Positions 1,256-53,951 of a DNA stretch of 64,000 bases are shown here, one piece after another. Every line of letters begins with the position of its first letter. The first letter of the stretch is position 1. Made by a program: the position numbers and the translations under genes. This stretch comes from Chiloscyllium plagiosum. Its lineage: Eukaryota. The stretch spans positions 2,248,458 to 2,312,457 of the forward strand of contig NC_057718.1 in assembly GCF_004010195.1 (NCBI RefSeq). Reading direction: 5' to 3'. The notes under the pieces were generated by a model. That model was not told the DNA's origin, searched no databases, and was given only the letters and a program-made list of their open reading frames with translations.

Positions 1256-2394
1256 ACATTGGTCAAACTGTTAGAATCATCTATAGCAACACAGAATCAC
1301 TACATCAGACCAGACCTCATCATTTCCTTTGAGTTCCCTAATTTGGTTACACTTTCATGTTATTCACCATAAACATTCATGATTCATGAAATACACAGTA
1401 AAAAAACCACACTCCCTATTATTACTGCAAAAATGGGTCAATAATGTATGGTAGGAAAGAGAGTCTACATGAATTATAAAATAAAACTCCAAACGCTGGG
1501 TTTTTACTCCAGTATTCATTTTGAAAGATATCACATGTCACATTTGAACTGCCCATTATTCTTACAAATGTGCAGAAGTTTGCAGACATTAAATGAGCAG
1601 TGAACTGACAGGGGAATATTATCATTAGTGTAAGTGACCCATCAATGTCAGGATCATCAATGACAATCAACCTCTTTCACCCAGCATGTGAACAGTGCTA
1701 GGTGTGAAGTCTCTCATTCCTTCAAGTTGTGAAGTGTTTTTTTTAAGAGAATTAAGTCTTTTTTTAAAACTTCCCTCCCCTGTCTCTCTTTCTATCTGAA
1801 TTTACTCCAATGTTTCTTTACTTCTATTCCTTTTTCTGTACTTGATTTGTCATAGAACTCCCCCACTCAAGTCCATCCTTTTTTCACTCCTTTCTTGATT
1901 TCTTAAGCGTTTACTCTCATGGTTAAGGAAATATACTGATGGTCATTCGGTTGTTTGGTAGAACAAAACTTGATATTGGTAAAAATAGACTATTTCCATC
2001 TTGCATGAAGACAGGCCAACAGTAAAGGGAACAACGGTGTGAGAAGACAGTGCTGACTAGTTAGTTACTCATTCAACAGTCAAGGTGTTGAAATGAAGAC
2101 TGCACCTGTTAGGTGATGACTGACAGTTAAATGTCAACACTTACTTAAATTTAAAACAGGCAGTTTGAATGTGATTGGTCAAGGCATTGCCTCAAGGAAT
2201 GAATCAGCTGTTTTGCAGAGTTGAAAAGGCACAACTTTCAGAAATAATTAGAGTCCTGTGTATTAATATCTGTAACCTCCAGTCTGCCCTAGTGTACCAC
2301 TGCAAGACTAACTGAAGATCTTAAATTGGTAAAATAAATCAAAGAACTGTGGATGCTGGAAATCAGAAACAAAACCAGAAATTGCTGCAAACAG

Positions 2395-5580: not shown

Positions 5581-5793
5581 TTAAAAATCAAAAGAACTAT
5601 GGATGCTGTAAATCAGAAACTAAAATTGCTGGAAAAGCTCAGCAGGCCTGGCAGCATCTGTGGAGAGAAATCAGAGTTAATGTTTCAGGTCAAGTGACCC
5701 TTCCTTCAGAACCTTTCCTCAGAAACGTTAACTCTGGTTTCTCTCCACACATGCTGCCAGACCTGGTGAGCTTTTCCAGCAATTTCCATTTGT
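5581..5793. mobile_element. Short fold-back Penelope-derived element (family B) with 16-bp TSD
   Basis: Inverted arms gctggaaaagctcagcagg...ctggcagcat / atgctgccagacctggtgagcttttccagc; flanking direct repeat GTGACTGAAATACAGA at 5565-5580 and 5794-5809. Confidence 0.8.
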
Positions 5794-5918: not shown

Positions 5919-6194
5919 AGAAACCCTACAGTGTGGATGCTGGCCATTCAGCCCGGACCAAAGAGCATCCCATCCAGACCCATCCCCCAACCTTATCCCT
6001 GTAACCCTATATTTCCCATGGCCAATCATTTAATCTGCACAACTTTGGACTGTGGGAGGAAACCGGAGCACCCGGGGGAAACCCACGCAGACACGGGGAG
6101 AATGTGCAAACTCCACACGGACTGTCACCCGAGGCAGGAATCAAACCTGGGTCCCTGGCGCTGTGAGGCAGCAATGCAAACCACCATGCCATCC
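5919..6194 (-). mobile_element. HE1-type V-SINE (tRNA-derived)
   Basis: Reverse complement carries a tRNA-like head and the V-SINE core gtgtggagtttgcacattctccccgtgtctgcgtgggtttc. Confidence 0.85.
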
Positions 6195-6382
6195 TTGCTT
6201 CTCTAACAGCTGACACCAAACTCCATGGTGAAGTTAACCACTGCCCTCCCACAACTATCCCAGTAGGTAGAGTTAAAACCCACATTGTTAACTTAAACTA
6301 TCAGCTATCTTTAATAACTTGAAGAGCTCCATCAATTGACCTTGACATTTGTAAAAATAACTCAATCATCTGAAATGATTGT

Positions 6383-6639
6383 GGGCGACACGGTGGCACA
6401 GTGGTTAGCACTGCTGCCTCACAGCGCCAGAGACCCGGGTTNNNNNNNNNNNNNNNNNNNNNNNNNNNNNNNNNNNNNNNNNNNNNNNNNNNNNNNNNNN
6501 NNNNNNNNNNNNNNNNNNNNNNNNNNNNNNNNNNNNNNNNNNNNNNNNNNNNNNNNNNNNNNNNNNNNNNNNNNNNNNNTTGTTGGGCCGAAGGGCCTGT
6601 TTCCACACTGTAAGTAATCTAATCTAATCTAATCTAATC
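6383..6639 (+). mobile_element. HE1-type V-SINE spanning an assembly gap
   Basis: Head ggcacagtggttagcactgctgcctcacagcgccagagacccgggtt; tail gggccgaagggcctgtttccacactgtaagt(aatct)n. Confidence 0.85.
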
Positions 6640-7589
6640 ATCACAACCACTCCCTATTTCATTTCTGGGTTGAATTGAGATTTGCTGCCACTTCATTGGC
6701 CCCCCTACCTTTCACAACAGTGTAGTTCATCTGAAACCCGAATATTTACATTCAAACATGTGCCGTGTCCTGTTCATTCATCACCTTCTGCACCCTCTAC
6801 CCCTACACTGGCTCCCAGTACATCAATACTCACCATTTTAGTATTTTTATCCATTTTCAAATCTCACCATTATCTTGTTCCTGTGGAACACTGCCATCTC
6901 CTCCAGTTCTGGAACCCTCTGAGATCTCTCTATTCATCTAATTCTGATTCTTATTCATTCCTGGCATTAATCATTCCACCAATAACAGTGATAGTTTCAG
7001 GTCCTGGACCCCCACACCATTCATTCTTAAACATCACCAGCTGTCCCTACTCCTTATAATCATGCTCGTTGAACAGCCTTTGCCTATTATAACGATCTGT
7101 GCAAGATGATATAAAAACCACACAAAGATTTTGTATGTTGAAGCTCATACAGCACCAGTATTTTGCATTCACATAGCAACATTACGGTAATAAACATCCC
7201 AAGATATTTCACAGGAACAAATTCAACTGAAAACGAACACAGAACAGATGGCAGGTCAGAGAGACTCGAAACATTTATACAGCAAAGCCTTCTTCACCAT
7301 CACTCCATTTCAATCTCATCACTTACAGGATTATAGGGAAAAGGTAGGGGAGTGTGATTGATGAGTTGTTCTTCCAGAGGACTAGCATGTACACAATGGG
7401 GTGGATGGCCTCGTTCTGTGCTGTTTCCATGCTACAATTCTAGGTAATAACATTTTCTTTCCCTCGACCCCTTCCAAAAACAGATCCTCTTCCTATTTCT
7501 CGACCGTGAACTCTATCAGTTCCGTTATCTCTCCAGCCTTTTGGCCCACTCACACACTCCCACTTTTTAAAAAAGTTTTCATTGTGTCA

Positions 7590-7685
7590 GACCTGAAGAA
7601 AGGTTAAACCCAAAACATCGACTTCTCCACCTCCTGATGCTGCCTGGCTTGCTGTGTTCTTCCAGCCTTCTGCTTGGCTACATAT
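7590..7685 (+). mobile_element. Penelope-derived terminal fragment with degenerate hammerhead core
   Basis: ctgaagaaaggttaaacccaaaacatcg followed by gatgctgcctggcttgctgtgttcttccagc. Confidence 0.65.
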
Positions 7686-8960: not shown

Positions 8961-9599
8961 GTCTGTGTGGGCTCATGTATACTTACCATGTATAAAGAGA
9001 AACAGTTTGTTCCGTGTGTGACTGTACATCTCCTGGACAGTGCGTTGTTAGCTCCTGTATGGATGGAGGGCATAGCAATGAAAACAAGGACATTTTGGTC
9101 CATTCCTGGCTGCATGTAGGGTCTGACAGGGAGTGGGCAGAGGTTACACCTCAGGGCAATCAGGGTGAGGAGTGAAAATGAGTTGGAGCATGAGTCATTG
9201 CTGTAACTTGACCCAGACAGAGTCATTGATGATTGGATTCAGGATCCCAGTGAGGCTGAACATCGTCCCACACATACAAGATCTGTCTACATATCAGCTC
9301 ATTTGCATACTTTTGACTGATGTACATCAGTGTAGAATTTTGTGAAAGTATTTTTTAAATGTTGACATCGCTGGGTAATACATTAGTGTCACATGAAAGC
9401 CAGAAGGGGTAAAGTTGGCAGATTTCTCTTCCTGAAGGGTGTTAGTGAAGCAAACAAAATAAAAACCAAAACAACCATAAATTCCCGAAATCAGAGACAA
9501 AAATAGAAATGGCTGGAGAAGCTCAGCAAGTCTGGCAGCATCTGTGCAGAGAAATCAGAGTTAATGTTGCGGGTCCAGTGACCCTTTCCCCAGAAGTAG

Positions 9600-12299: not shown

Positions 12300-13140
12300 A
12301 AGCAGCAGTAGGCCATTTGGCCCGTCGAGCCTGCTCCACCAATCATTAAGATCATGGGTGGCACGGTGGCACAGTGGTTAGCACTGTTGCCTCACAGCGC
12401 CAGAGACCCGGGTTCAATTCCTACCTCAGGCAACTGTCTATGTGGAGTTTGCACATTCTTCCCCGTGTCTGCGTGGGTTTCCTCCGGGTGCTCCGGTTTC
12501 CTCCCATAGTCCAAAAATGTTCAGGTTAGGCGAATTGGCCATGCTAAATTGCCTGTAGTGTTAGGTGAAGGGGTAAATGTTGGGAAATGGGTCTGGGTGG
12601 GTTGCACTTCGGCGGGTCGGTGTTGACTTGTTGGGCCGAAGGGCCTGTTTTTACACTGTAAGTAATCTAATCTAATCATGGCTGATCTATCCATGGCCTT
12701 AGCTCCTCCCACTCTGTTATCTCCTTTACCATTAATTCCCCGACCGTGCAAAAACCCAACCAATTGTGTCTTCGATATATTTGATGAATCTGCCTCTATT
12801 GCTTCCTTGGGCAGAGAAGTCCATAGATTCATTACACTCTGGGAAAAGCAATTCTTCCTCATCTCTGTCCTAAATCTACTCCCCCTAATCTTGAGACCAT
12901 GTCCCCTAGTCCTAGTCTCACCCACCAGTGGAAACAACTTGCCTGCCTCTATCTTATCTATCCCTTCCCTAATTGTCTATGTTTCTGTAAGATCCGCACT
13001 CATTCTTCTAAATTCTCGTGAGTACAATCCCAGGCGGCTCAACCTCTCCTCGTAGGGTAACCCCCTCATCTCCAGAATCAACCTGGTGAACCTCCTCTGC
13101 ACTGCCTCCAAAGCCACTATATCCTTCCTCAGGTAAGGAT
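12300..13140 (-). mobile_element. CR1 3' fragment (host of a SINE insertion)
   Basis: PYLRKDIVALEAVQRRFTRLI and MFPLVGETRTRGH motifs. Confidence 0.85.
12356..12677 (+). mobile_element. Full-length HE1-type V-SINE
   Basis: A box tggcacagtgg, B box ggttcaattcc, V core and (taatc)n tail; inserted within aagatcatggctgatc of the CR1 3' UTR. Confidence 0.9.
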
Positions 13141-13489
13141 GGGATTCATTGGGATACTGTCCCACATCCCGAAACCTTTTCCAAGCCTCCCTCATACAAT
13201 AGGCAAGCCCTCAATTTCAAACTCAGCTTAGACAATGAAGCCTGAAATGTTTGAGAGAAAGTTATAAACACATTGAAGTTTTTAGATTAGATTAGATTAG
13301 ATTAGTTAGTGTGGAAACAGGCCCTTCGGCCCAACAAGTCCACACTGACCCTCTGAAGAGCAACCCTTCATCCAAACAAAATGATTCCTTCATAAATGAC
13401 CTTCTCAGTTTATAGTCTCTCTGTATTGAGCATCAGCACAGGTCAAGTGGGAAACAGACGGTTTGTTGTAGGGTCCTGCACACATGCAA

Positions 13490-16500: not shown

Positions 16501-16700
16501 AATGCTGTTAGTCAAAGGATTGCAGCTTCAGTAATTGAAGATAAATTAAATTCACTCACTAAGCCATTGGTCAAGCTCACTTTAATTCTTTGTAATATAC
16601 CCTTCACCTTGTGCTGTCTTTTACCAATCACATTTTATGTTCTAAATCTCTCCTGTTTACAGTAACCTATTTTTGGACAGCATTGTTAAATGAGCAGTGG

Positions 16701-16933
16701 TTAAAAATGTGTTGCTGGAAAAGCGCAGCAGGTCAGGCAGCATCAAAGGAGGAGAATCGATGTTTTGGGCATAAGCCCTTCATCAGGAATGAGGAGGAGC
16801 CTCATTCCTGAAGAAGGGCTTATGCCCGAAACGTCGATTCTCCTTCTCCTTTGATGCTGCCTGACCTGCTGCGCTTTTCCAGCAACACATTTTTAAGCTC
16901 TGATCCCCAGCACCTGCAGTCCTCACTTTCTCC
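16701..16933. mobile_element. Fold-back Penelope-derived element (family A) with 14-bp TSD
   Basis: Near-perfect inverted arms of about 90 bp (aaaatgtgttgctggaaaagcgcagcagg... / ...cctgctgcgcttttccagcaacacattttt); TSD TAAATGAGCAGTGG at 16687-16700 and 16934-16947. Confidence 0.88.
16808..16835 (+). ncRNA. Minimal type I hammerhead ribozyme core (Penelope-associated)
   Basis: CUGAAGA-A-GGGC-uuau-GCCC-GAAA-CGUC: both conserved boxes, a 4-bp stem II, palindromic ACGU in place of stem III, and a GUC cleavage triplet. Stem I pairing is short. Confidence 0.7.
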
Positions 16934-17799
16934 TAAATGAGCAGTGGGTCTGTTTTGGAGCTGCTGGCTGAGGTGTACATATTTTCCAGGGCATTAGGAT
17001 AGTACAATGGGATCGTTCCATCTACTGAGAGGCCAGAACATCAACTTAACATCTTCATCTGAAAATCAGCAAAACTGAGCCATTTGGCTGTTTGGAACTG
17101 GTTTCCCATTCTGTAGATCATGGCAGATCCAGTTCTGGTTTCAGCCTCACTTTCCCATCTGCACCTCCCAGACCCCGATGTCAAACAAAACATCTATCAA
17201 TCTCAATCATGAATAAATTCACCGAGTCAAACTCCACTGTTCCCTGAGGGAGAGAATTCTATCCATAAACTATCCTTCTCACCTCCATTTGGAAACAGAG
17301 GATGCTTATTCCTAAACTGTATTCCCAGAGTTTCAGTTTCTCCCTGAGGAGAACAAACATTGTTTCAACATCAACTCTGCACAGTCCCTTCAACATTTCA
17401 ATGGGATCATCATCTCTCATTACTCTGAATTCAAATCCTGGACAAGTTTAACAGCAGATAGAAACAAGAGGAGTCAGTCCAGAACTGATATTGACCTGTG
17501 TCGAAGCTGCTCTGGAGAGTAAAGGCCAAGTTTGACTCAGAACTTGTCGTTATTTGTAGATTATTCAATAAATCATTTTCATTTGTTAACCCAAAACTGC
17601 TGTTTGCCAATGCTTTATTTCATCAGTCTGAATACTCATTAAAGTAATTAGCAGAACCTTAGAAATTCTTGTTTTGTCAGGTTAATGACAAAACATTGGA
17701 GCAAACCAGAGATGCTGAATGACTTACTCCTTGTCCATTTTAGTGTGTGTGTAACACTCTGCCAAACTTATTGCAATGCAATCACTCAGAGGGACACTC

Positions 17800-19361: not shown

Positions 19362-19570
19362 CCTGTAAATCAGAAACAAAAACAGATATTGCTGGAAAAG
19401 CTCAGCAGGTCTGGCAGCATCTGTAGAGAGAAGTCAGAGTTGACGTTTCGGATCAATTGACCCTTGCAATTTTGAGGAAGGTTCACTGGATCTGAAATAT
19501 TATCTCTGCTTTCTCTCTACAGATGCTGCCAGACCTGCTGAGCTTTTCAAGCAATTTCTGTTTTTGTTTG
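19362..19570. mobile_element. Fold-back Penelope-derived element (family B)
   Basis: Inverted arms aaacaaaaacaga..gctggaaaagctcagcaggtctggcagcatctgtagagag / ctctctacagatgctgccagacctgctgagcttttc..tctgtttttgttt. Confidence 0.8.
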
Positions 19571-30491: not shown

Positions 30492-30684
30492 CTGAAAATG
30501 TGTTGCTGGAAAAGCGCAGCAGGTCAGGCAACATCCAAGGAGCAGGAGAATCGACCCTTCTTCAGGAAGGCTCATGCCCGAAACGTCGATTCTCCTGTTC
30601 CTTGGATGCTGCCTGACCTGCTGCGCTTTTCCAGCAACACATTTTCAGCTCTGATCTCCAGCATCTGCAGACCTCACTTTCTCC
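30492..30684. mobile_element. Fold-back Penelope-derived element (family A) with 13-bp TSD
   Basis: Inverted arms; centre retains atgcccgaaacgtcga; TSD TTAATGAAAGTGG at 30479-30491 and 30685-30697. Confidence 0.88.
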
Positions 30685-32339: not shown

Positions 32340-33717
32340 ACATGTGATCCAAGGAAAGTGATGGGATCAGACGGAGTACAAGGCCGTGCACTCAGAGTAT
32401 GCGCAGATCAACCGGCAGAGGTCTTCTCGGACATCTTCAACCTCTCCCTGCAGCAGGCCACTGTCCCTGCCTGTTTCAAGAGGCCAACATCATCCCTGTA
32501 CCTAAGAAGGGTCATGCAGCATGTCTCAATGACTACCGCCCAGTGGCCCTAACCTCAGTGGTCATGAAGTGCTTTGAAAAACCGGTCATGGCATGAATCA
32601 TTATTCAACAATGATGAAGAGCTCCTGCCCAAAACGTTGATTTTCCTGCTCCTCGGATGTTGCCTGACCTGCTGTGCATTTCCAGCACCACTCTAATCTT
32701 GACATTAATGAACTCCAGCCTCCCCACTACTCTTGACCCACTCCAATTTGCCGATCTGACCAACAGATCCATATCAGATGCCATATCCCTTGCCCTTCAC
32801 TTCTCCCTAGAACATCTTGACACCAAGAACAGCTACGTAAGAATCCTACCCATTGACTACAGTTCAGCCTTCAACACTGTTATCCCCTCGAGACTGATTA
32901 CTAAACTTCCTGATCTCGGACTAAGCCCCATCCTCAGTTTCCTGACCCACAGGCCACAATCAGTGAAGACTGGGGACAATATTTCATCCTCACTAACACT
33001 CAACACTGAAGCCCCCCAGGGGTGCGTACTGTGACTCCTACTGTACTCACTGTATACCCATGACTGCGTCGCCACATACCAGACTAATACCATTTACAAG
33101 TTCGCTGACGACACCACTATAGTCGGTCGAATCTCAGATGGCGATGAAACAGACTACAGACAGGAGGTGGAAGACCTGGAAAAATGATGCACTGAGAAAA
33201 ACCTAGCTCTCAATGCTGGCAAAGTCAAGGAATGTATTATTGACTGTCAGTAGGATGTTACTCATGCCCCCTACACATTAACAGCACAGAGGTGGAATGA
33301 GTGGAGAGTGTCAAGCTCCTGGGAATGGTCATCCACAACAAGCTTTCTTGGACTCTTCATGTGGATGCACTGGTTACAAAGGCCTAACAACGTCTCTTCT
33401 TCATCAGGCGGCTGAGGAAATTTGGCATGATGGTGAATACCTTTCTCTGGATTAGTGGTGCTGGAAGAGCACAGCAGTTCAGGCAGCATCCAAGGAGCTT
33501 CGAAATCTACATTTCGGGCAAAAGCCCTTCATCAGGATTGACAACTTTTATAGGTGCATCATAGAGAGCATTCTGTCTGGATGTGTCACTACCTGGTATG
33601 GTAACTGTACCATTCAAGATTGGAGACGGTTACAGAGAGTGGTGAACTCGGCCCAGACAATCACAAAGGCCAACCTCCCATCTATAGAATCCATCTACCA
33701 GGCCCTCTGTCAAGGAA
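32340..33717 (+). mobile_element. Rex1/Babar-clade LINE RT fragment carrying two Penelope-derived insertions (about 32600-32705 and 33445-33537)
   Basis: ADQPAEVFSDIFNLSL, CLNDYRPVALTSVVMKCFE, LDPLQFA, DYSSAFNTVIP, PQGCVL and KFADD motifs; stops and frameshifts; ends at a gap. Confidence 0.88.
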
Positions 33718-34355
33718 NNNNNNNNNNNNNNNNNNNNNNNNNNNNNNNNNNNNNNNNNNNNNNNNNNNNNNNNNNNNNNNNNNNNNNNNNNNNNNNNNNN
33801 NNNNNNNNNNNNNNNNNNNNNNNNNNNNNNNNNNNNNNNNNNNNNNNNNNNNNNNNNNNNNNNNNNNNNNNNNNNNNNNNNNNNNNNNNNNNNNNNNNNN
33901 NNNNNNNNNNNNNNNNNNNNNNNNNNNNNNNNNNNNNNNNNNNNNNNNNNNNNNNNNNNNNNNNNNNNNNNNNNNNNNNNNNNNNNNNNNNNNNNNNNNN
34001 NNNNNNNNNNNNNNNNNNNNNNNNNNNNNNNNNNNNNNNNNNNNNNNNNNNNNNNNNNNNNNNNNNNNNNNNNNNNNNNNNNNNNNNNNNNNNNNNNNNN
34101 NNNNNNNNNNNNNNNNNNNNNNNNNNNNNNNNNNNNNNNNNNNNNNNNNNNNNNNNNNNNNNNNNNNNNNNNNNNNNNNNNNNNNNNNNNNNNNNNNNNN
34201 NNNNNNNNNNNNNNNNNNNNNNNNNNNNNNNNNNNNNNNNNNNNNNNNNNNNNNNNNNNNNNNNNNNNNNNNNNNNNNNNNNNNNNNNNNNNNNNNNNNN
34301 NNNNNNNNNNNNNNNNNNNNNNNNNNNNNNNNNNNNNNNNNNNNNNNNNNNNNNN

Positions 34356-36057
34356 TCAGGGTCACTCTCACTGACCTCAGGCCCAGGGTCACTCTCACTG
34401 ACCTCAGGGTTAGGGTCACTCTCACCGACCTCGGTCCCAGCCTCAGGGTCACTCTCACTGACCTCAGGGTTAGGGTCACTCTCACCGACCTCGGTCCCAG
34501 CCTCAGGGTCACTCTCACTGACCTCAGGGTTAGGGTCACTCTCACCGACCTCGGTCCCAGCCTCAGGGTCACTCTCACTGACCTCAGGGTTAGGGTCACT
34601 CTCACCGACCTCGGTCCCAGCCTCAGGGTCACTCTCACTGACCTCAGGGTTAGGGTCACTCTCACCGACCTCGGTCCCAGCCTCAGGGTCACTCTCACTG
34701 ACCTCAGGGTTAGGGTCACTCTCACCGACCTCGGTCCCAGCCTCAGGGTCACTCTCACTGACCTCAGGGTTAGGGTCACTCTCACCGACCTCGGTCCCAG
34801 CCTCAGGGTCACTCTCACTGACCTCAGGGTCACTCTCACTGACCTCAGGGTCACTCTCACTGACCTCAGGGTCACTCTCACTGACCTCAGGGTCACTCTC
34901 ACTGACCTCAGGGTTAGGGTCACTCTTACCGACCTCGGTCTCAGTCCCAGGGTTACTCTCACCGACCTCGGTCTCAGCCCCAGGGTCACTCTCACTGACC
35001 TCAGGGTTAGGGTCACTCTCACCGACCTCGGTCTCAGCCCCAGGGTCACTCTCACTGACCTCAGGGTCAGGGTCACTCTCACTGACCTCAGTCTCACACC
35101 CAGGGTCACTCTCACTGACCTTAGGATTAGGGTCACTCTCACTGACCTCGGTCTCAGTCTCAGGGTCACTCTCATTGACCTCCACCTCAGTCTCAGGGTC
35201 ACTCTCACTGACCTCAGGGTCACTCTCACTGACCTCGGTCTCAGTCTCAGGGTCACTCTCACTGACCTCAGGATCAGGGTCACTCTCACTGACCTCAGTT
35301 TCAGTCTCAGGGTCACTCTCAATGACCTCAGGGTCAGGGTCACTCTCACCGACCTCGGTCTTAGTCCCAGGGTCACTCTCACTGACCTCAGGGTTAGGGT
35401 CACTCTCACCGACCTCGGTCACAGTCCCAGGGTCACTCTCACTGACCTCGGTTTCAGCTCAGGGTCACTCTCACTGACCTCAGGGTCAGGGTCACTCTCA
35501 CTGACCTCGGTCTCAGCCCCAGGGTCACTTTGACCTCAGGGTTAGGGTCACTCTCACCAACCTCGGTTTCAGTCTCAGGGTCACTCTCACTGACCTCAGG
35601 GTCAGGGTCACTCTCACCGACCTCGGTCTCAGCCCCAGGGTCACTTTGACCTCAGGGTTAGGGTCACTCTCACCGACCTCGGTCTCAGCCCCAGGGTCAC
35701 TCTCACTGACCTCAGGGTTAGGGTCACTCACTGACCTCGGTCTCAGCCTCAGCGTCACTCTCACTGACCTCAGGGTCAGGGTCACTTTCACCGACCTCGG
35801 TCTCAGCGCCAGGGTCACTCTCACTGACCTTAGGATTAGGATTACTCTCACCGACCTCGGTCTCAGTCCCAGGGTCACTCTCGTTGACCCCCGCCTCAGT
35901 CTCAGGGTCACTCTCACTGACCTCAGGGCCAGGATCACTCTCACTGTCCTCTGTCTCAGTCCCAGGGTCACTCTCATTGACCTCCGCCTCAGTCTCAGGG
36001 TTACTCTCACTGATCTCAGAGTCAGGATCACTCTCACTGACCTGAGGGCCAGTCTCA
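34356..36057. repeat. Minisatellite: 21-bp monomer CAGGGTCACTCTCACTGACCT with 60-bp higher-order unit
   Basis: Six identical 60-mers at 34441-34800, pure 21-mers at about 34804-34910, degenerating rightwards; left end lost in the gap. Confidence 0.97.
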
Positions 36058-38236
36058 ATGTTAGTGTGAGTTGTGTTACAGACATGAGAGGATTAAGATT
36101 GCTTTTTTGGGGATATGCCTTTCATTTCAGGGAGAAATGAAAAGATTCTCTGTGGCCTGTTGTGGAGTTGGCTTGGCTGCAGACCGTCGAGGTTTGATTG
36201 TTGGAGACGATTGAGGACTCAGACTGTTACATCAGGGAAAAGAAGCAAGGTGTTATCAGGAAACAGACTTGAGTCTCCAAAGTCCCAGGGAACTCTGGGA
36301 GAATATCAGGTTGTAAATGTTTATGTTCTAAACTCTCTGTTTATTTCAAAGGTAAATGAATGGACCATCAGCATCTCTTCCTGGATACATGGTCCATGGG
36401 ATTCATATTGCCAGGGCTTTGAGAGGGAAAGAGTCTTTAGTATCCCAGAAATTAACAGAGAGGTTACCTGTTAAAATACAGGAAAGCGAGAGCAGCCGTA
36501 AGCAGCAAGATGTTGTGGCTCAGTGTGTGGGAAGGCAGGTCTGAGCTCACACTCAGTCTGAAAAGATCAAATGCACAAGAAGTTTATCAAAGGTGGAAAA
36601 TCTGCCCTAGTGAGTACTAGAGGGGAAAGCTCTGGGGAAAACAACACTGCAAAAGACAGGGGAATTGGCAATGTACTAGTATCGTTACTGGAGCTAATAC
36701 TTGAGAGTGTAAATTCAAAACTGGGGGAATCTATCTCAGCCTTGAATATACACAAGGACTGTGCCCTCACAGCTCTCTCTGAGCAAGGAGTTCCAAAGAT
36801 TCATAACCCTCTGAGAGAGGAAATCCCTCCTCCTCTCAGTCTGAAATCGGTGCCTCGTTATTCTGAGACTGTGCCCTCTGGTCCTAGACTGTCCCCATGA
36901 GGGGACCATAAAACCATTGATCATTTATTGTGCTGTTTATTAACATTCCATCTGGTTCAGAAATGCCCTTTGAGGAAGGAAATCTGCCATCCTGACCCAA
37001 TCTGGCCAACACGTCACTTCAGCAGTAATGTGGTTGACTCTTAACTGCCTTCTGAATTGCTGAAGCAGTCCACTCTGTTCAAAGACAATTAGGGCAGGCA
37101 CATTCTGATCTTGTAAATGATGCCCTCATTCTGTCATAGGAGTCATAAAGACATGCTCTGTGCCTTTTCTATCTCCTTTTTTTGAGGGTGCTATTCTTTT
37201 TCTTCAGCAGTGCGAGTTGTGATACCTGCTGGCAGGTTCCTACTTCTTACAGCCAATGGATTGTTCTGTCAGTGAAGCCTATCCTGTCCAGGCACGAGGT
37301 CTGCAAGTTCAATCATTGTGAATGGTCGGCTGAGGATCAACTCCTTTCAATCCTCTCATTTTCTTTCACCTTCTGGACCATGTCCAAGGAATCCTGTGAT
37401 CCACATGGAAGCATCCAGAACTTCATCAAACAATTCCTAACATTCGGTGTCTAATGTTAGAAATCACACCCTGACTATTTGTAATGGTGGTCACTATTTG
37501 TGGATGCTGGGTATTGTGTGACGGAAATGGTGAGCAGAGAGAGTTCAGTTGGGAAGTGTGTCAGACTGCTGGACTGATGCAGTTTGGAGCCCTTTAGAAG
37601 AATGCTATAATTGATTAATAATAAAAAGCAAAGCCAAGAACTGATGTCCTCTGGGAATAAGCCTCAACAGGTCCTCGAGGTTACACAGTGAGGTGGATTG
37701 TGCCTGGGGACCAAGCTGCCTTCCTCTTCAGATCTCCTCTGTGTGAGGAAGGGTCACCATGAATGATTTTATAAAGAGCCCTTTATTTGAATCTCTTCTA
37801 AGGGGACACGTCATTATCTGGAATATGCCCTTCCAGCATGTTTGTTGCAATATCTCAGATGTCATTTAGTTTAAAATGGTGGTGAGGTTGTATTGCAGAC
37901 TGACCTGTGTAAAAAGTGCAGTTAATGTTCATAGATTCACCTGTCACTCAAAGTTGAGTGTCTCAAAATGTTTGTGTTTTTTATATATTGTGGACTGAAA
38001 TGAAAATTAACTGTTTGAAGGTGAGTATTTTAAGGAATTGCTGCATGTCTTGAACAGCAAGTCACCTGACACTTGTGGGAAGCATTATTTAATCAGCGAC
38101 TTGACCAAGCGGGAAGTGAAGTGGTCGCAGACAAACTGCAGTCAAGGGGTTCTGCGTACAGATGCAGCTGGGTGGCAACAAGCTGTTGATTGTACTAAAG
38201 ACTGGTGACCAGTTATTGATGACAAATCCTTTTGCT

Positions 38237-38999: not shown

Positions 39000-39464
39000 T
39001 TGGATAAAAGCTTTGACAAAGGATCAGTTAGACTCGAAACATCAGCTCTTTTCTCTCCTTACAGATGCTGTCAGACCTGCTGAGATTTTCCAGCCTTTTC
39101 TCTTTTGGTTTCATAACATTAGATCTTTGGGGCTCAGGATAGAAGTGTTTATATCTCCACCAGCTCAGCAGCTGTCTCTCTGTTCTCTGCAGCTGAAAAC
39201 TAACTGAAAGCTGATAAAAAGGAGTTCATCTTTCCTTTATCAACAGCTGTACACTGTGAGTTGTAATTGATATGTCAGAGACCAGTGAACAAGCCACCTT
39301 GTGTCTATTACAAACCTATTGAGTCATCCAGAGAAAGACAATTGGAAGGCCACATTCGGACCAACATAACAACCAAAAGGATCATCTCAGTAACCCATGA
39401 GTGGGATCCACTGAATTTGTTTCCCAGCTCTCCTCTCCATAGTTTATTCTTTCCAGTTGGTTGG

Positions 39465-39970: not shown

Positions 39971-40940
39971 GTTATAGCTGTTCACCTGTAGCCTTAGTCT
40001 AATTACTTGAAATAGTCATTCTTGCTGAGTACAGAATCTTGGTCTGTGCTTTCAATCAATCTGGATCCAAAAATCAGGTAAATTGGGGAATTTTGTGCAC
40101 TTATTTTAACGGTGGGGCTTCTGGTGCACTCCACTAGTGAGGTGTGGCCAGTGATGTGTGTTCAGCAATGAAAAGAAAAAGGCTAGTTTACAATCTAGGC
40201 TGAAGTCACCTTTTGTGGGTCAGTCAACAAAGTCTCAATTTGCAAAACCGATTGCACATAATAGGAATGATGTCAGAGCCAGAGAGAGGGGTGAAGACAT
40301 TGGTACACACTCTTCCTGAAGGCCCTTGACTCTCTTCCCTTCAAAAACCAAAAATGTTTGATGGCAGATTTCTCCATTTGGGTCGGTCAGAGGTTGGCTT
40401 GCCCATGTATTGACATTAAATTTTCAGACTCTGAGGTTTGCTTTCAGAATGCCCTCTCACTTAAGTTTTGTGTAAAGGAGTTAGGACCCTGGAGCAATGT
40501 CATAGTGATGGCACAGCTTTACACATCACTGGGTATAAATATCACAGAGTGGGTAGGGTTAGAACTGACAAGAACTCACATTGGAATGCGTGACTCTCTG
40601 GAAAACACATTAAGTGCATCTGCAAATGGATAATGAAAGAAGATAAATTAGTAATTTCCTATCATAAATATAAGTCAAAATCTGAGATATTTTACTGTGT
40701 GTAATAATAGTATGAATGTATAATAAAGAACATGACTGAAATTTAAGCCCAAAGACAGTCCTTGACTTGCCTTCTCCACAGTTAATCTATCACAAACCCA
40801 GACTCTTGGTTTGGTATCAGACACACGGCAAACATTGCTGGCAGGACTCAGCAGGTCTGGCAGTATCTGGAGAGAGAGAAACAGAGTTAATGTTTCACAT
40901 CTGTTACCACTCTTCTTCAGAATTGATTAAGAGTCATAAC

Positions 40941-41595: not shown

Positions 41596-42339
41596 AACTG
41601 GACTCAAAATATTAATCTGCTTTCTCCCCACTGATGCTGCCAGATCTGCTGAGTTTCTCCAGTCATTTCTGTTTTGGTTTCAGATCGCCAGCATCGACAG
41701 AAGTTTGCTTTTACACAATAAACGGTAGCATACACAACCGATAAAAGATGGTGGCAGCACAGGATTCACCTGTGCAGATCAAGAAACCAACTTGAGATGG
41801 TCTGGAGAAGAGAAGAATTCAGGAAAAAAACAATCTTTCTAAATATCATCAGAAAAGTTAGAAGCAACAGCGAGCAACTGAGAAAGACACAGACTGCAGC
41901 TTAGCCTCTGAATAAAAAACAGCTGGGACATGAAAAGAAACCTCCAAGCAAAAAAACTTTAACAGAAGTAATCTTCAGGAAAACACTGTAAGACAAAACA
42001 GAAGCTTTTTGCAGCCCGTAATGAGGGAAACAAGTTTTTAAAAGACTTTAAGAGCAGTAAAAAAACCCGATAGCAGCAAAGAGCATTGATCCAAAGTATG
42101 TAGTGAAAAAAGAACGAATTGTCAGACGCAAAGTAGGTTTGTTCGCTGAGAAAAAGAGGGTGAAAAACCATTAGGTTCACCTAAAAATGTTGGGATAGAA
42201 AGCCTGGGTGGCTCAGTGGTTAGCACTGCTACCTCGTCTCACTGACCTGTGTTCGATTCCACCCTCAGGTGACCGTCCGTGTGGGGTTTACACATTCTCC
42301 CTGTGTCTGTGTGCAAGTTAAGTGGATTGGCCTTGGTTA

Positions 42340-43757: not shown

Positions 43758-46700
43758 GGGGGGGATCCAAGATGGCAGCAGTCTGAGTGGTCTGCTGTGC
43801 TGGGCTCTCTGCCATACCCCAGGACAATGTGGACCTTCCCCCCCCCCCCCCCCCCCCACTTTTTTAACCACCCCAAGGAGAAAAAAGTATTAATTTAAAC
43901 TTACTGAATATTTGGAGCTGCTGAGACATCTTCAGGCCAGGATGAAGACCAGCAAAGGAAACGGCCCTAAAGGAGAACAGCAGAGAGGGCACTCCCCTGA
44001 TGTATGGGGGGTGCCTGCAGCCAGTACTCAGTCTCCCGAGACGGTCCCTTCAGGTCCAGCAGGACAGCAGCACTTACTCTCAGAGTTTGCTAAACATCCG
44101 AGAGTGGATTCAAGCAACAGTGGAGCCGCTGTCTGCCATGCTAAAAAAGCATGAGCAGGAAATCCAGCTCCTGGAACGAAGACTAGAGACAGTGGAGGAA
44201 AGGTCCGCGGCATCAGAGACCGTGGCTGAGGTATGGGGGTAGGGGGGGAAGGACCCGAACGCTGGAAGACCAGGTTTGGGTCCTTCAGGATCAAGTCAAT
44301 AATCTAGAAAATAAAAATAGAAGAAAAACATTATTGATTGTGGGCCTCACGGAATGTGAAGAAGGCAAGGATCTCGCTGGCTTCTTGCAGGGATGGCTCC
44401 TGAAGTTTCTCCAGTTAGAGTTGGAGTCAGGCCTGGTAAGTGTGGAGCAGGCCTACGGGATCACAACCCGCAGGCCCGGGCTGGACCAGCACCCCCATGT
44501 GGCCCGAGTGCAGCTCCTGTATTCAAGCAAAACAGTTAATAGTGGAAGCAGCAAGAGAATTGGGAAAGAATTCACAAATCTTAATGTATAACGGTTCAAA
44601 GGTAATGTTTTTTTCAAGATTTTTCAGGAGCCCTGGTCAAGAGGAGAAGAACATTTGATGATGTTAAAAAAGAATGAGGGAACATAAACATCCAATACTC
44701 CATGAGGTACCTGGCCGTGTTGTGTCTCACCCATGGGGGGGAACGGCATATAACTTTGACTCCGCTAAAAAGGTAAAGGACTTTGTGGAGTCTCTGGAAT
44801 GAAGGACCTGAGTTGGGATGGGAGGGGAGGGGAGGGGAGGGGGCATTATTCCGAACATTGGTTTGTGGGTTTTTTTTAATTACCCCCCTTTCTATTTCTC
44901 TTTCCCCCTTTCCCTCTTTCCTTTTTTTGAGTGATTATTGGTTGTACATGTATGATTCTGTTGTAAATTTGTTAAATTTGAACTATTTTATACACCGGTC
45001 GGTTGGGTAGTATCTAGGATTGTTTTTTTAATGCTATCTCTTTAATTTTGCATTTAGGGTGACTATATTTGTGACTAAGATGTGTGTGTGGGGGGGGGAT
45101 GGGGGTTGGTGAGAATGGGTATTCACTGTTTCACAATGTAAATAACAAGTCTTTTTTGTTTGTGAATTGCCTGGGGCTAGGGCACGGCAATAGGCACTGG
45201 GAAAGGTGCCCCCTACGAGCAGGGGGGAAGATCCCAAGTGAATAGGGGGTTATTTGTTTCAGTTAAATGTAGTGTTTTTTTTTAGATGTAGTTGTTTCTC
45301 TAGGAATAGTTTTCAGATTTAATAGCGTTAGTATCTTTGTAACTCATCACACCTCAGATATGTTCCTTCCTCCTGGGAAACCACAGGCTGTCCTAGATGA
45401 CCATGGCTAGTGATTTGTTCAGATAGTGCACCTGGAAAATAAAAGGGAGTAATTCTCCTGTTAAACGAAAGAAGGTCTTGTCGAGACTCAGGAAGGGAAG
45501 GGTGGATATTGCCTTGCTGCAAGATACGCACTTAATTGACAAGGAACATTTGAAATTACAGCAGGGGGAGTTATGCCAAGGTGTTTTTTCTCAACCTTCA
45601 GTTCTAAGAGCAGAGATGTAGCTATACTGATAAGAAGGCACCTCCCCTTCCAAGTAATGGAGCAGATTAGGGATGATCATGGAAGGTTTATTATTTTGAA
45701 AGCCCTTATATATGGAGAAAAACATGGTGTTCTGAATGCATATTGTCCCCCGGTGCACTCTCTTAAATTTCTAATTGATGCAGTGGCTAAATGAATGAAT
45801 CTTGGGGTTCATCGTATGATTATAGGAGGGGATTTTAATCGCCTTATAGATCCGAGATTGACAGGGTGCCAAAGGGCCTGGCAGGTGCACCTGCACAGTC
45901 TATACAGATGGTGGACACGTGTGATGAGTTGGGATTAGTGGGTGTGTGGACGTATTTCCACCCTAACGGAAGAGATTACATGTTCTATTCCAACCCACAC
46001 AAATGTCATATGCAAATTGATTTTTTTTAATGCCATCTGATGGCCTGGACAGAATATTTGCATGTAAAATAGGGAATCTAGCTGTTTCGGATCATGCGCC
46101 AGTATACTTAGATATTAAAGCCAAGGGCAGTGAAGCAAATGTATGTCACTGGTGCACGGATTCATTTTTGTTAGGGGCTAGTAAATTTATTGAATATATT
46201 ACAAGGGAATTCAGGACCTTTTGGGATATTAATTCAGGTACAGCTAGTAATCCGGCAATACTTTCGGAGACCACTAAGGCATATTTACGAGGTCTGATTA
46301 TTTCACATTCAGTGACTAGAAAAAGGCAGACGGAGGAACAGCAGGGGTTGCTGGAGGCCTGGCTGAAGGTAGCTGAGAAAACAGATTACAGTAAACCATC
46401 ATTGGTTAAACTTCAGCGGGTCACAGCTCTCCAGGCTGTCCTCGACTCAATACACACACAAGTGGCGAAAAAAGAGATCTCCTTTGCCAAACAAAGATAG
46501 TTCGAATTCGGTGATAAACCTGGTAAATATCTGGCTTATTTAGCGAGGAGGAAAAAATCCTCCCAATCTATTACCTCTGTTAGTGATAAGACTGGTACGA
46601 TTACCCATGAATCAAAAAAGATCAATGCTAGGTATGGGGAATATTTTGAAGAGTTATATTGGTCGGAGGGAAGTGAACACGGTACAATGGGAATGCAGTC

Positions 46701-47890
46701 CTTTGTTGAAAGTCTGGACCTCCCCAATATAAGTAAGGAGCAGGCTTCCCTTTTGAATGCACCTCTAACAATACAGGAAGTGGAGGAAGCAATAAGGCAT
46801 CTCCAAGGTGACAAAGCACCAGGGCCAGATTGATTCCCAACTAAATTCTATAATGAATTCATAAACGTATTAGTGGAACCACTCCTGGAGATGTACAAAT
46901 ATTCTTATACACAGGATTGTTTGCTGTCCACTCTTAGGGAGGCTAATATCTCCCTTATTTTAAAGAAGGGGGAGGACCCCAAAGAATATACTTCATACAG
47001 ACCGATCTCGCTACTGAATATAGATTTCAAAATTTTATCGAAGATGTTGGCTCTGCGATTGGGGAAAGTTTTGCCCCATATTATAAAAGACGACCAAACA
47101 GGTTTTATTAAGGGCCGCAGTTCCTCTAACAATATTGGGAGAGTACTGAATGCAGTACAGTATATCAGCAAAGATTGACTCCGGGGTTGGTGGTCTCCTT
47201 AGAGAAAAGGAGAACCCCTTAGAAAAAGCCTTTGATCAGATAGAATGGCCGTATCTATTTGAGGTTCGAGAGTGTTTTGGTTTGGGGGGACCCTTTGCCT
47301 GATGGGTAGCAGTTCTGTATAATGATCCTAAGGCAGCAGTTCTTACAAATGGTGTTAAGTCAAATAGCTTTAATATTAGAAGAGGTAGTCGACATGGGTA
47401 CCTTTATCACCGCTGCTATTTACCTTGGCGTTAGCTGAAACTATCAGAAAGGACTCTGAAATAGTAGCACCAAAGGTGGGAATGGGGAAACATAAGATTA
47501 CCCTATACACTGACGATGTTCTTTTATTCTTGGCCGAACCGGTGAGGTCTATTCACCGGCTGATCCAAACAATTAATTCATATGGTAGTTTTTCAGGTTA
47601 TAGGATCAATTTCACAAAATCGGAAACCATGATGGTAGGGGGGAGGGCGCTTAGAGGAGATGCCTAACTTGAAGGATAAAATGCAGTTCCCATTTAGGTG
47701 TTCACCAAAAGGTTTTCTGTATTTGGGAATTTTTATTACCCCTTCCTTTCACCTGCTGTATAAGGCAAACTTTGTACAATTACTAGAGAGGATAAGACAG
47801 GATTTGCAGCGATTACCATTATCATGGCTGGCCCGAATAGCTCTGATCAAGATGAATGTCCTTTCCAGAGTACCATGAGAATGCTCCCAC
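43758..47890 (+). mobile_element. L1-clade LINE: 5' UTR, ORF1, inter-ORF spacer and ORF2 (endonuclease + RT); degraded and 3'-truncated
   Basis: Starts GGGGGGGATCCAAGATGGC (YY1-like); ORF1 coiled coil and NLENKNRRK.LIVGL; ORF2 from 45403 (TWKIKGSNSPVKRKKV..DIALLQDTHL, GGDFN, SDH, YRPISLLNIDFKIL, YTDDVLLFL, IKMNVL). Confidence 0.93.
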
Positions 47891-47948: not shown

Positions 47949-48414
47949 TTCTGGATCAGTGGTGCTAGAAGAGCACAGCAATTCAGGCAGCATCCGAGGA
48001 CAAGCAAAATCGACGTTTCGGGCAAAGTTCACTGACATCTTCTACAAACCCACCGACTCCCACAGCTACCTGGATTACACCTCTTCCCACCCTACCTCTT
48101 GCAAAAATGCCATCCCGTATTCCCAATTCCTCCGCCTCCGCCGTATCTGCTCCCAGGAGGACCAGTTCCACCATAGAACACACCAGATGGCCTCCTTCTT
48201 TAAAGACCGCAATTTCCCTTCCCACGTGGTCAAAGATGCCCTCCAACGCATCTCATCCACATCCCGCAATTCCGCCCTCAGACTCAACCCCTCCAACCGC
48301 AACAAGGACAGAACGCCCCTGGTGCCCACCTCTCGGATGCTTCCTGAATTGCTGTGCTCTTCCAGCACCACTGATCCAGAATCTGGTTTCCAGCATCTGC
48401 AGTCATTGTTTTTA
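47949..48414 (+). mobile_element. Penelope-like element remnant: RT C-terminal coding fragment between inverted terminal arms, 15-bp TSD
   Basis: TDIFYKPTDSHSYLDYTSSHPTSCKNAIPYSQFLRLRRICS is diagnostic of Penelope RT; TSD CATCAGGATACTGGA at 47934-47948 and 48415-48429. Confidence 0.92.
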
Positions 48415-50644: not shown

Positions 50645-51980
50645 TAAAGAACAATGCAGAACAGGAACAGGCCCTTCGGCCCTTCAAGCCTGTGCCTGCA
50701 TATTTTTCCCTTCCATACTAAAACAGTTTTCATCTTCAGGATCCATATCCCCATATTCCCTTCCTATTAGTGTATCCGTCTAGGTGCTTCATGAATGCTG
50801 CTATTGTGTCTGCTTCCACCCCCTCCTCTGGCAGCACGTTCCATGCACTCACCACCCTCTGTGTGAAAAACCTACCTCGCCCATCTCTTTTAAACATCCC
50901 CTCTTCGCATCTTGAACCTGTGTCCCCAAGTAATTGACCCCTCCACCCTGGGAAAAAGCCGCTTACTTTCCACTCTATCCATGCCAGTCACAATCTTATA
51001 AACATTTATCAACCTCCTGTGTTCCAGTGAAGACAAACTCAGTTTATGCAACCTTTCTTCCTTGCTAAAATCCCCCATCCGGGCAACATCCTGGTAAACT
51101 ACTTCTCTACCCTCTCCACATCCTTCTGGTACAAAAACTGAAGTTGCTGGAAAAGCTCAGCAGATCTGGAGCATCTGTGGAGAGAAGACAGAGTCAACAT
51201 TTCAGGTCCAGTGAACCTTTTTCAGAACTGGAACATCCTGATGACCAAAACTGTACACAATGTTCCAACTGTGGCTTAACTGAAGTTCTATAAAGCTGCA
51301 GCATAACCTGTCTATCCTTATATTCAGAGCCCCTTCCAATGAAGGCAAGCATGCCATCGGCCTTTTTTACTCTCTTATCTACCTACACTGCTACCTTCAG
51401 TGATCTGTGGATCTGCACACACAAACCCCTTGACATATCAATACTCCTAAGGGTTCTGCCATTCACTGTATCATTTCCACCTGCACTTGACCTTCCCAAA
51501 TACTTCACCTCACATTTGCTTGGATTAAACTCCATCTGCCATTTTTCTCCCCATGCCTCCAACTGATCTATATCCTGCTGTATCCTCTGATAATCCTCCT
51601 CACTATCCACAACTCCACCCATCTTTGTATCGTCTGCAACTCACTAATTAAGCCAGCTATGTTTTTCTCCAAATCATTTATGTTGACCACAAACAGCAGA
51701 GGTCCCAGCACGGACCCCTAGTCACAGTCCTCCATTCCGAAAAGCACCCTTCCTCTGTTAGCCTCAGTCTCCTGTGACTAAGCCAGTTCTGTATCCATCT
51801 TGCCAGCTCAGCCCTAATACCATGTGATTTCATCTTTTGTACCAGTCTGCTATGAGGGACCTTGTCAAAGGCTTTACTGAAGTCCAAGTAGACAACATCA
51901 ACCACTTTTCCTTCATCAATCATCTTCGTCACGTCCTCAAAAAACTTAATCAGGTTCATGAGGCACAACCTCTCCTGCAC
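50645..51980 (-). mobile_element. CR1 LINE RT to 3' end with a Penelope-derived insert at about 51132-51235
   Basis: VDVVYLDFSKAFDKVPH and WQMEFNPSKCEV motifs. Confidence 0.9.
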
Positions 51981-53149
51981 AAAATTATGCTGTCTGAGAA
52001 TCTTTGGTGAATTTCTGCAGTGCATCTTGTAGTTAGTACACACTGCAGCTACTGAGTGTCCATGGTAGAGGCAGTGGATATTTGTGGATGTGGGGAATTA
52101 GGAGGTGAGTTACTGCAGTATTCCTAGCTTCTGACCTGCTCTTGTAGCCATTGTGTTTATGTGGTGAGTCCAGTTGAGTTTATGGTCAATGTTAAACCCC
52201 AGGATGGTTATTGTGGAGAATTCAGTGATGGTAACACCATTGAATGTCAAGGGGCGGAGGTGGTTAGATTGTCTCTTGTTGGAGACTGTAATTTTAATTG
52301 TAAATGTGGAAAGGCATCTGACAATGCCTCATAATAAATTATCAGAAGTTGCACATTGTTATTTTTTATTTGAACCATTATGTAAAGGATTTTCACAGAT
52401 TATGAAGGCATAGTTTGGATATTTTTTAAAAATCATGAATTACATCAGCTCACATCATCAGAAAATGTCAAGGTATTTTTGACCTGGTTTAACTGCAGGG
52501 CCCCCAAGCTGTTAAAATGAGAAATTGCTGTGTGTGATGAGCTGACTTGTTAATAGCAAGCCCTCAGTGGCTGAGATCATTTCGATAAGCTGATTGCTGC
52601 TGGTTTACTGGAAGTGCAGGGAGAGGGAGGAGGAGGGAACAGGCTGCTGCCTATCAGCATGACACTCCCAGTCAGCTTCCCATTCAGTCCGAGAACAGGA
52701 GGATCGGGAAAAGCTAAGGCAGCTCTCCAACCAACCCGAGCTGCCTTTTAAGGAGGTGCTTTCTGAAGTGTTTGTAATTGGGTGGTTTCCCACAAGGCTT
52801 TCACACAGATTGTTCTTGCATTTCAGATGAATACAAGGGCAGGTTCTGAGTGAGCTTGTATTAACCCAGGATACAGTGCTGAGTGTGAGAACGTCTTGCA
52901 TTCGACAGCAGGACTGTGTTATTGTTTCTCACACTGAGATTCAGAGGGCAGCTGACTTCAACAGCCAATCAGCACAGCCAGCTTTATAGCTAGACCAGCG
53001 TTAAATGTGATCCCTTTGGAAGAAGGATCAAGTTCAGGGAATGGCAGCACACTGGGAAGCTCAGAGGGACAAAGGGATCTTCTTCACAAATCCCTGAAGG
53101 TGATTGGACAGGGTAATAGGGTTGTTTCAGAGGGCATATGTCTTTATAA

Positions 53150-53432
53150 GTCGAGATTGTGGTGCTGGAAAGGCACAACAGGTCAGGCAGCGTCTGAGAA
53201 GCAGGAGAGTCGACATTGCGGGCAAAAGCCCTTCATCAGTCCCCCCTTTCACCTACATGTCTTTATAAACCATGGTATAGATTATAAGCAGAGAAGAAAG
53301 TGAGGACTGCAGATGCTGGAGATCAGAATCGAGAGTGTGGTGTTGGAAAAGCACAGCAGGTCAGGCAGCATCTGAGGAGCAGGAGAATGCTGCGTGACGT
53401 GCAGTACTTTTCCAGCACCACACTCTCGACAT
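53150..53432. mobile_element. Two adjacent Penelope-derived short elements (family A)
   Basis: Arms gtgctggaaaggcac..caggtcaggcagc and gaaagtgaggactgcagatgctggagatc; duplicated flanks atgtctttataa and gattataag. Confidence 0.75.
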
Positions 53433-53951
53433 GGATTATAAGTGCCCTGACAGTGAGAGAAGAACCCACAGCTTAAGCCTCATAATCCTGAGTCTCTGGG
53501 ACTCCTCCTGACCAAGTGGTAGAGGCCGAGTCCTTGAATATCTGAAGGTGGAGGTGGGGGCCGGGGGAGAGGGGAGGGCGGGGAATGTGAAAGTCATCAG
53601 GGATAGGCAGCTGTTTGGATAATCAGATCCATCTTGAACTTATTGAATGGTAGAATAGGGTCAAGGGACCGAATGGCCAACTCCTGCTCCAAATGCGTTA
53701 TGTTCCCCTGTGATAAAGTGGCCGTGTTGTGGTTCAGCCCGCTGGTTGGGATTGAGCAGCAATGGCCCTTGCAGCTCTGGGTGGACACATTGCTATCCCT
53801 CCTCCGAGAGAAACAGAGACACAGCCAGGCAGGGTACTCAGGCCAGCACTACCCTCTCCCACAAAGCACTCATCAGTCAGTCCAGGGGGACGGAGAGGAA
53901 GAAATCAAAATGGAAATATTGAGGGAGGGGAGTGAATACAAATATAAATAG

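Follow-up and report, generated by a model that had tools for sequence, protein, structure and literature searches.

In Penelope-like elements (PLEs), an inverted, 5′-truncated pseudo-LTR (pLTR) accompanied by a tail of 30-40 bp is typical (PMC8557442, PMC3846280, PMC8969392). The complex insertions of endonuclease-bearing (EN+) PLEs share with the shark copies reported here a head-to-head inverted pLTR, a one-sided tail, a target-site duplication (TSD) of variable length and microhomology junctions (PMC8557442, PMC3846280). They differ in that most shark copies consist of the pLTR alone (90-230 bp) and occur about once per 3.5 kb in the 64-kb stretch of Chiloscyllium plagiosum DNA that was analyzed, hereafter the window. 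The minimal hammerheads of metazoan PLEs (PMC4209133) have the same CUGANGA core, extra base before stem II, G10.1-C11.1 pair, palindromic stem III stub, short stem I and covarying families as those of the shark, and opposed minimal hammerheads lying 100-700 bp apart were already noted in that report in 2014. In the shark, however, stem II comprises 4-5 bp and about 20 bp separate the opposed cores; the available text of that report makes no mention of sharks. Poseidon of Anolis carolinensis (PAc; PMC11167929) likewise carries a hammerhead at the pLTR/ORF start, has two fixed 3′ ends that bound a tail, and is copied from uncleaved RNA, as we propose for the shark element. In contrast to the shark relatives, which have a Neptune/Nematis linker, PAc belongs to the Poseidon clade, and the available part of the PAc paper leaves fold-back products and a preferred 5′ end undiscussed. 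Animal non-LTR retrozymes (PMC7229834; bioRxiv 10.64898/2026.07.22.740005) are likewise short and noncoding and combine a type I hammerhead with kinship to PLE pLTRs, but they form head-to-tail tandems with one ribozyme per unit and circular RNA, whereas the shark copies are head-to-head or solo. Palindromic Penelope derivatives are not described in the available text of Kojima 2018 (PMC5753468). In searches of a largely open-access literature, none of the papers listed dealt with these shark families, with twin priming by PLEs, or with a favored 5′ end at the hammerhead.

The locus studied here, 16701-16933, had been proposed to belong to a self-propagating, retrozyme-like family of fold-backs with a ribozyme on either strand. 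Our analysis indicates that the fold-back with its hammerhead is most likely a truncated PLE by-product, a new lineage example of a known insertion pattern, and most likely not a new self-copying ribozyme element. In particular, we assign a probability of about 0.7 to the reading that it represents a dead-on-arrival insertion of an endonuclease-bearing Neptune/Nematis-type PLE, in which the fold-back is made anew at each insertion by the joining of two cDNAs. The 233-bp element is flanked by an exact 14-bp direct repeat and is built as follows.

16687-16700, plus strand: left TSD of 14 bp, an exact match to 16934-16947
16701-16794, minus strand: inverted, tail-less pLTR arm of 94 bp, from arm-versus-arm comparison
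16759-16786, minus strand: decayed mirror hammerhead core, in which A replaces G12 at 16766 and a change at 16761 disrupts the stem III palindrome; fails the descriptor
16795-16799, no strand: head-to-head junction and hairpin loop of 5 nt, from folding; in no other copy of the window
16800-16896, plus strand: direct pLTR arm of 97 bp, from profile search and arm comparison
16804-16839, plus strand: minimal type I hammerhead, a predicted ribozyme, from descriptor match and covariation
16897-16933, plus strand: one-sided PLE tail of 37 bp, unmirrored in the fold, with loose ends behind 16888-16893 and 16934
16934-16947, plus strand: right TSD, the first T of which is possibly the last tail base

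The two arms differ by 3 substitutions and one 3-nt indel, and the segment 16897-16933, which had gone unnamed in the original prediction, lacks a mirror partner and constitutes the tail. In silico, the plus strand folds as a single hairpin (−179.1 kcal/mol, z of −24). The predicted 233-bp element with inverted arms and a 14-bp TSD was borne out, and long hairpins in read-through transcripts were likewise supported. Reads and contigs of public runs were aligned to positions 16772-17010 at 85% likeness. Loose ends ahead of 16798-16800 have a pyrimidine-rich consensus in common, and therefore longer copies among these reads and contigs extend upstream of the arm. The tail-flank border of the focal copy was crossed by one contig in each of the two DNA runs, X5 and X11; the tail-side overlaps, 24 and 20 letters, fall below the 31-letter rule, so that the insertion may be common to both source organisms. 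None of the reads of the RNA run, X21, reached the right flank of the focal copy.

The predicted hammerhead comprises the 5′ strand of stem I (16804-16807), C3 (16808), stem II (16816-16819/16824-16827), G12 (16828), the palindromic stem III (16831-16834) and H17 (16835), which places the putative cut between 16835 and 16836. The core at 16808-16835 is intact, with the catalytic core, stem II, palindromic stem III and NUH site, and the descriptor confirmed the claim of an intact minimal core on this strand. Only two descriptor matches were obtained in the window (C3 at 16808, plus strand, and 33535, minus strand), compared with a total of two in 200 shuffled windows. Among the 24 arms recovered, the focal direct arm is the only one with a fully intact core, since the match at 33535 passes the descriptor without the palindrome. 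The proposed CpG decay of the mirror copy was confirmed as well: the changes at 16766 and 16761 are both of the CpG type, and therefore no intact ribozyme is present there. For the focal copy, the notion of a ribozyme on either strand fails, because G12 is missing from the mirror and the intact core is tied up in the hairpin. The energy needed to impose the hammerhead fold is 48.9 kcal/mol for the full element versus 2.2-3.8 kcal/mol for a solo arm, and the probability of stem II drops from 0.88-0.97 in the solo arm to about 0 in the full fold-back. In a search against Rfam up to an E value of 10, none of the 21 matches was a hammerhead; the top matches, hairpin microRNA models scoring far under the gathering threshold, were rejected. 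Core pattern scans of viral and metagenome contigs yielded no matches.

Covariation was assessed in 12 of the 13 core-bearing arms, with the arm at 60791 excluded because of a deletion and with two misregistered rows retained in the set. Stems I and II were 75.7% paired in these 12 arms, while slid pairs reached at most 46.7%. At pair 4 of stem II, C-G occurs in 5 of the 12 arms and U-A in another 5, and two-sided changes amounted to 13 cells, a value as high in 3 of 500 shuffles, although they reflect few independent events. The number of covarying pairs was not above that in shuffles (144/500). Stem II covaries between families as had been proposed. Because of the covariation in stems I and II, the hammerhead motif is real at the family level, and most copies are decayed. 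The terminal U of GACCU, one of the stem II strands given originally, is probably a product of CpG decay, since the copy at 9455 has a C there. In the two DNA runs, A accounted for about 10% and 14% of the depth at G12, similar to nearby CpG sites, which were altered at 6-14%. The core shows no sign of protection after insertion.

Relatives were collected over the window by an iterated nhmmer search with a self-built profile, which revealed 24 arms belonging to 18 elements; together they span 2665 bases, 4.3% of the called sequence. The arms fall into two sequence families, A and B. All 14 relatives listed earlier were recovered, the one at 2335 as a tail-side fragment only (E value of 4e-4), and those at 41620, 47949 and 53290 were additional. 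Besides the focal element, the copies are the following.

2347-2390, minus strand: family B tail-side fragment, E value of 4e-4 with the self-built profile
5581-5793, minus strand: family B fold-back with tail, 16-bp TSD
7589-7669, plus strand: divergent single arm, from profile search
9487-9597, minus strand: family B single arm, from profile search
19362-19569, no strand: family B fold-back, TSD not found by search
30492-30684, plus strand: closest relative, a fold-back with arms 87-92% identical, a different junction, no complete core and a 13-bp TSD
32607-32700, plus strand: family A single arm with decayed core, from profile search
33445-33539, minus strand: family A single arm, second descriptor match (C3 at 33535), palindrome decayed
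39009-39112, plus strand: single arm of family B, stem I pairs compensatory, weak 11-bp TSD
40826-40924, minus strand: family B single arm, from profile search
41599-41700, plus strand: family B single arm starting within stem II, from profile search
47949-48414, plus strand: inverted arm, PLE reverse transcriptase (RT)-thumb ORF fragment (48031-48330), direct arm and tail, all inside a 15-bp TSD
51130-51229, minus strand: family B single arm, from profile search
53150-53256, plus strand: inverted arm of about 90 bp joined to the last about 20 nt of a tail (tail identity by eye), 3-nt microhomology joint, 12-bp TSD
53290-53430, minus strand: fold-back ending short of the hammerhead core and thus coreless, TSD of 9 bp exact (or 12 with one mismatch)
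54624-54724, plus strand: family B single arm, decayed, from profile search
60791-60905, minus strand: single arm and tail starting from stem I (A-4), internal deletion past the core, 10-bp TSD

Target duplications flank 7 of the 18 elements (exact repeats of 16, 14, 13, 15, 12 and 10 bp, and the 9-bp exact or 12-bp mismatched repeat at 53290), a weak one accompanies the copy at 39010, and a search around the remaining 10 found none; in the null set, scores of at least 10 were seen at 7 of 290 random sites. Accordingly, the statement that several copies have TSDs of their own holds for these seven, at 9-16 bp, and their own duplications support independent insertion. One-sided tails like the 37-bp tail of the focal element are found at 30492, 47949, 53290 and 5581. 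Seven of the 18 copies are two-sided and 11 are single arms or fragments. Short elements with inverted arms and flanking duplications would also be expected of a MITE-like DNA transposon that had captured pLTR sequence and moved via its inverted ends. This reading is largely refuted by the variable length of the duplications, 9-16 bp, and by the asymmetry imposed by the one-sided tail; the predominance of single arms or fragments (11 of 18) and the presence of a PLE RT fragment in one copy further argue against it, and we regard it as scarcely credible.

Several positional features of the copies were observed. The targets of 16701 and 30492 are alike, each with TAATGA, a short gap, AGTGG and then GTCT (16687-16700/16934-16951 and 30479-30491/30685-30701), which could be a nuclease target preference of the subfamily; the duplications of other copies differ from these targets, and the loose ends behind the tail are mixed. 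At 53138-53442, two separate insertions with about 30 bp between them each have a duplication that includes TTATAA, possibly a local insertion hot spot. At 32607-33539, two single arms in opposite orientation are separated by 761 bp within an older LINE RT fragment (weak RVT_1 match), which we take to be Rex1-like, and the arms could pair in a read-through transcript. Elsewhere in the window, a long array of alternating 27- and 33-bp units, open in several frames, lies beside an N gap at 34283-36100. A reading frame at 319-681 on the minus strand resembles a retroelement integrase fragment in its motifs, and a run of reading frames with an RVT_1 match at 46021-47178 is probably a decayed ORF2 of an L1/Tx1-type LINE.

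The original prediction held that the fold-back is the mobile unit, that is, a non-autonomous retrozyme-like element which is transcribed, cleaves itself and is re-inserted as a palindrome. The high density of short, similarly sized copies (18 copies, 4.3% of called bases), their fixed outer ends and own target duplications, the family reads in both directions in X21, and the finding that pLTR sequence alone can be mobilized in trans (PMC3846280) are all in keeping with such a family. The inner junctions, however, are not: the seven two-sided copies (5581, 16701, 19362, 30492, 47949, 53150 and 53290) have seven different ones, and even in the closest pair, 16701 and 30492, both junction and length differ. 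In the DNA runs, summed depth left of the focal junction was 0.02% (X5) and 0.04% (X11) of arm depth; contig depth is not copy number and palindromes assemble badly, yet a 31-fold overlap bias would allow 0.7-1.3% at most. No head-to-tail hammerhead tandem was found among the 18 copies within the window. Low-depth joints back to 16804 and 16813 (depth of 70-210, kind unstated) could be rare tandem units elsewhere. In addition, the core is buried by 49 kcal/mol in the fold-back, a single arm of 24 is fully intact, and the start/end pile-up table is empty in X21, a weak test given its library. A joint of X21 from 16773 to 16853, reported as joining opposite strands, was rejected as a fold-back junction and fits sense reads matching the mirror piece of the reference. 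The self-propagating fold-back family is therefore not supported, and we consider it very unlikely.

The distribution of the ends bears on the same question. Among the joints listed, arm ends at 16792-16797 are followed by restarts at 16853, 16857, 16898, 16907 and 16914, and the intervening letters are available for a minority of these joints. The outer ends are fixed: tail-less arms stop just ahead of the tail in both families, and loose ends in the public runs concentrate behind 16888-16893 and 16934. Random breakpoints in every copy had been named in advance as a sign of independent truncation products. This sign is about half present: the inner ends vary from copy to copy yet cluster, and the outer ends are fixed. 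Fixed outer ends together with variable but clustered inner ends are explained by internal RT starts of a PLE and do not call for a fold-back master. In the six elements with two alignable arms, the nearest relative of each arm is its partner (12 of 12 arms), although for three of the six pairs the margin does not exceed 0.4 percentage points, and gene conversion between arms could produce such a pattern as well.

A Penelope-like origin is supported by the RT fragment between the arms of 47949-48414. This 300-bp ORF fragment is 91-95% identical to three proteins of Chiloscyllium punctatum, also a carpet shark, and longer relatives carry RVT_1 and GIY-YIG domains; a Pfam search did not recognize the thumb fragment itself, and the assignment is one of protein homology. 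Five of six relatives checked have the CX2-5CxxC linker, while the sixth ends ahead of the linker site, and three of the six, all outside the window, show the GIY-YIG pattern. This linker marks Neptune and Nematis and is absent from Penelope and Poseidon (PMC8557442). The source element would thus be an EN+ PLE of the Neptune/Nematis type, the two taken as one undistinguished group. The ORF is linked directly to one subfamily of family A, and no direct link was found for family B. The copy at 47949 also resembles a Pen2 derivative of rotifers, in which an internally deleted copy lies between inverted pLTRs (PMC8557442, PMC3846280).

A hammerhead-like motif is present in 18 of 80 related PLE loci drawn from metagenomes; in most of the motif-bearing loci inspected, it lies roughly 100-300 bp past the end of the ORF. 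At L002, L008 and L009, it overlaps the start of an ORF of 989-1139 codons. L005 and L029 carry opposed hammerheads in inverted arms of 600 and 338 bp flanking a partial ORF, and L005 has a one-sided tail. The contig ends of L008, L009, L042, L050 and L054 repeat each other, with a full PLE ORF in L008 and L009, and these contigs are likely collapsed tandem PLE units. Since the hammerhead of the relatives lies after one ORF end or at the next ORF start, the shark arms correspond to the first 90-130 nt of the next PLE unit; each arm is the part of a longer PLE between the hammerhead and either of two fixed ends, which are separated by 33-38 nt. A conserved ATG at 16854 opens a frame through the tail (16854-16933), with a similar peptide at 16701, 47949 and 60791; the frame is shifted in 30492 and 53290 and closed in 5581. 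The PLE ORF may begin at this ATG. By eye, the first part of the tail (16897-16915; 5597-5625 on the minus strand in family B) resembles a splice acceptor in both families, with a pyrimidine run followed by YAG. PLE pLTRs can hold introns.

As for the mechanism, it is known from L1 twin priming that a second nick can prime an inverted cDNA, which provides an analogy to the shark fold-backs, and retroviral strong-stop DNA, a short discrete cDNA started internally near the 5′ end of the RNA, provides one to the arms. The enzymes differ, and the shark copies lack the poly(A) tail or tRNA primer of those systems. In vitro, the protein of the anole Poseidon element nicks both strands of the target and extends them, its two internal RT starts bound the tail, and its template is uncleaved RNA (PMC11167929). 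By analogy with this Poseidon-clade element, from which the two-start-site scheme for a Neptune-type element would be borrowed, the GIY-YIG nuclease would nick both target strands 10-16 bp apart, and each nick would prime RT at one of two internal start sites on the uncleaved RNA, so that one cDNA would receive the tail and the other would not. The cDNAs would end at different places, frequently where hammerhead stem I begins, which is perhaps the RNA 5′ end, and 1-5 nt of microhomology or filler would connect them head to head. One cDNA per nick and start site would account for the fixed outer ends, the one-sided tail, the variable junction and partner arms of a single template. The hammerhead would be inherited from the pLTR and, locked in the duplex of the fold-back, would decay neutrally. 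This de novo model is founded on 18 copies with flanks, 10 of which show no target duplication.

Alternatively, the PLE origin could be the same and the inverted arm could arise by snap-back self-priming of one strand, with no second nick. Self-priming has been inferred from palindromes at inverted junctions of rotifer Penelope elements (PMC3846280), and the nearly symmetric focal junction with its 5-nt loop, as well as the near identity of partner arms, would fit it. However, at 53150 the inverted arm measures about 90 nt against about 20 nt on the direct side, and at 47949 the inverted arm extends further 5′ than the direct arm. The inverted arms of both copies hold sequence missing from the direct arm and were thus not copied from it. 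The junctions of 30492 and 5581 are asymmetric, and the tail-less arms of the two families share one stopping point, as would be expected of a second fixed RT start. We therefore consider snap-back improbable and favor the joining of two independently primed cDNAs.

The clustered inner ends deserve separate attention. Among the listed 5′ loose ends that have unlike flanks, position 16804, at which hammerhead stem I begins, has the strongest support in all three informative runs (X21, 185 of 3003 partly aligned reads; X5, 233 of 5013 contigs; X11, 301 of 6696 contigs), forming a peak rather than a majority; both focal arms extend 4-6 nt beyond this stem I boundary. An A four bases ahead of C3 is found in 9 of 11 non-focal core-bearing arms, with a C before it in 7, and the likeness fades upstream. 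The site resembles a transcription initiator. In the related metagenome PLE loci L005, L012, L033 and L063, a TATA-like motif about 33-39 nt before C3 was observed, pointing to a putative transcription start just ahead of the hammerhead in that related family. Penelope of Drosophila virilis has an internal promoter (PMC2377424), and the Drosophila-type downstream promoter element described there showed no fit by eye. If transcription starts at the A of the 16804 type, the copies would be strong-stop-like cDNAs, and the clustered inner ends suggest such cDNAs of the mRNA 5′ end; stalling of RT at the ribozyme fold is an alternative. A broader proposal, which we hold as tentative and rather doubtful, is that the arm is a discrete RNA module reaching from the initiator-like A and stem I start to RT starts 90-130 nt further on, and that Neptune mass-makes strong-stop-like cDNAs, some of which are remobilized in a SINE-like manner. 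On this view, every copy would retain the transcription start together with both RT starts, and this could allow renewed transcription and mobilization of some of them.

The RNA run X21, a poly(A) single-cell library, contained 3011 family reads in both directions and no tabulated pile-up of starts or ends, although a library of this kind is a weak test of cleavage or RNA monomers. A>G plus T>C accounted for 28 of 74 variable places in X21 versus 8 of 47 and 5 of 39 in the DNA runs (Fisher P values of 0.015 and 0.005). All five listed A>G sites were higher in one mate direction and five of seven T>C sites in the other. The excess fits A-to-I editing, confounded by uneven expression of paralogues and by different individuals. 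Heavy editing of Penelope is described for a lizard (PMC5625713). Copies inside host transcripts would be a source of double-stranded RNA, which probably undergoes A-to-I editing. Shark SINE pieces in inverted pairs at 6144-6441 and 12599-13366 constitute a further source of double-stranded RNA. We take these pieces to be HE1-like.

The shark copies offer a natural data set for the open question of how PLEs make an inverted pLTR with a tail: short and numerous, they display fixed RT starts and variable joints together and match a mechanism so far seen only in vitro, for the lizard element. If the module proposal is true, the element would release strong-stop-like cDNAs either singly or as twin-primed fold-backs, some of them possibly forming a SINE-like family without a tRNA or 7SL head, through which ADAR substrates would be placed ready-made in shark transcripts. 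Should the clustered 5′ end be a transcription start, it would also account for the numerous scattered minimal hammerheads in animal genomes. Making up about 4% of the window, such copies could be a chief contributor to double-stranded RNA and A-to-I editing in sharks.
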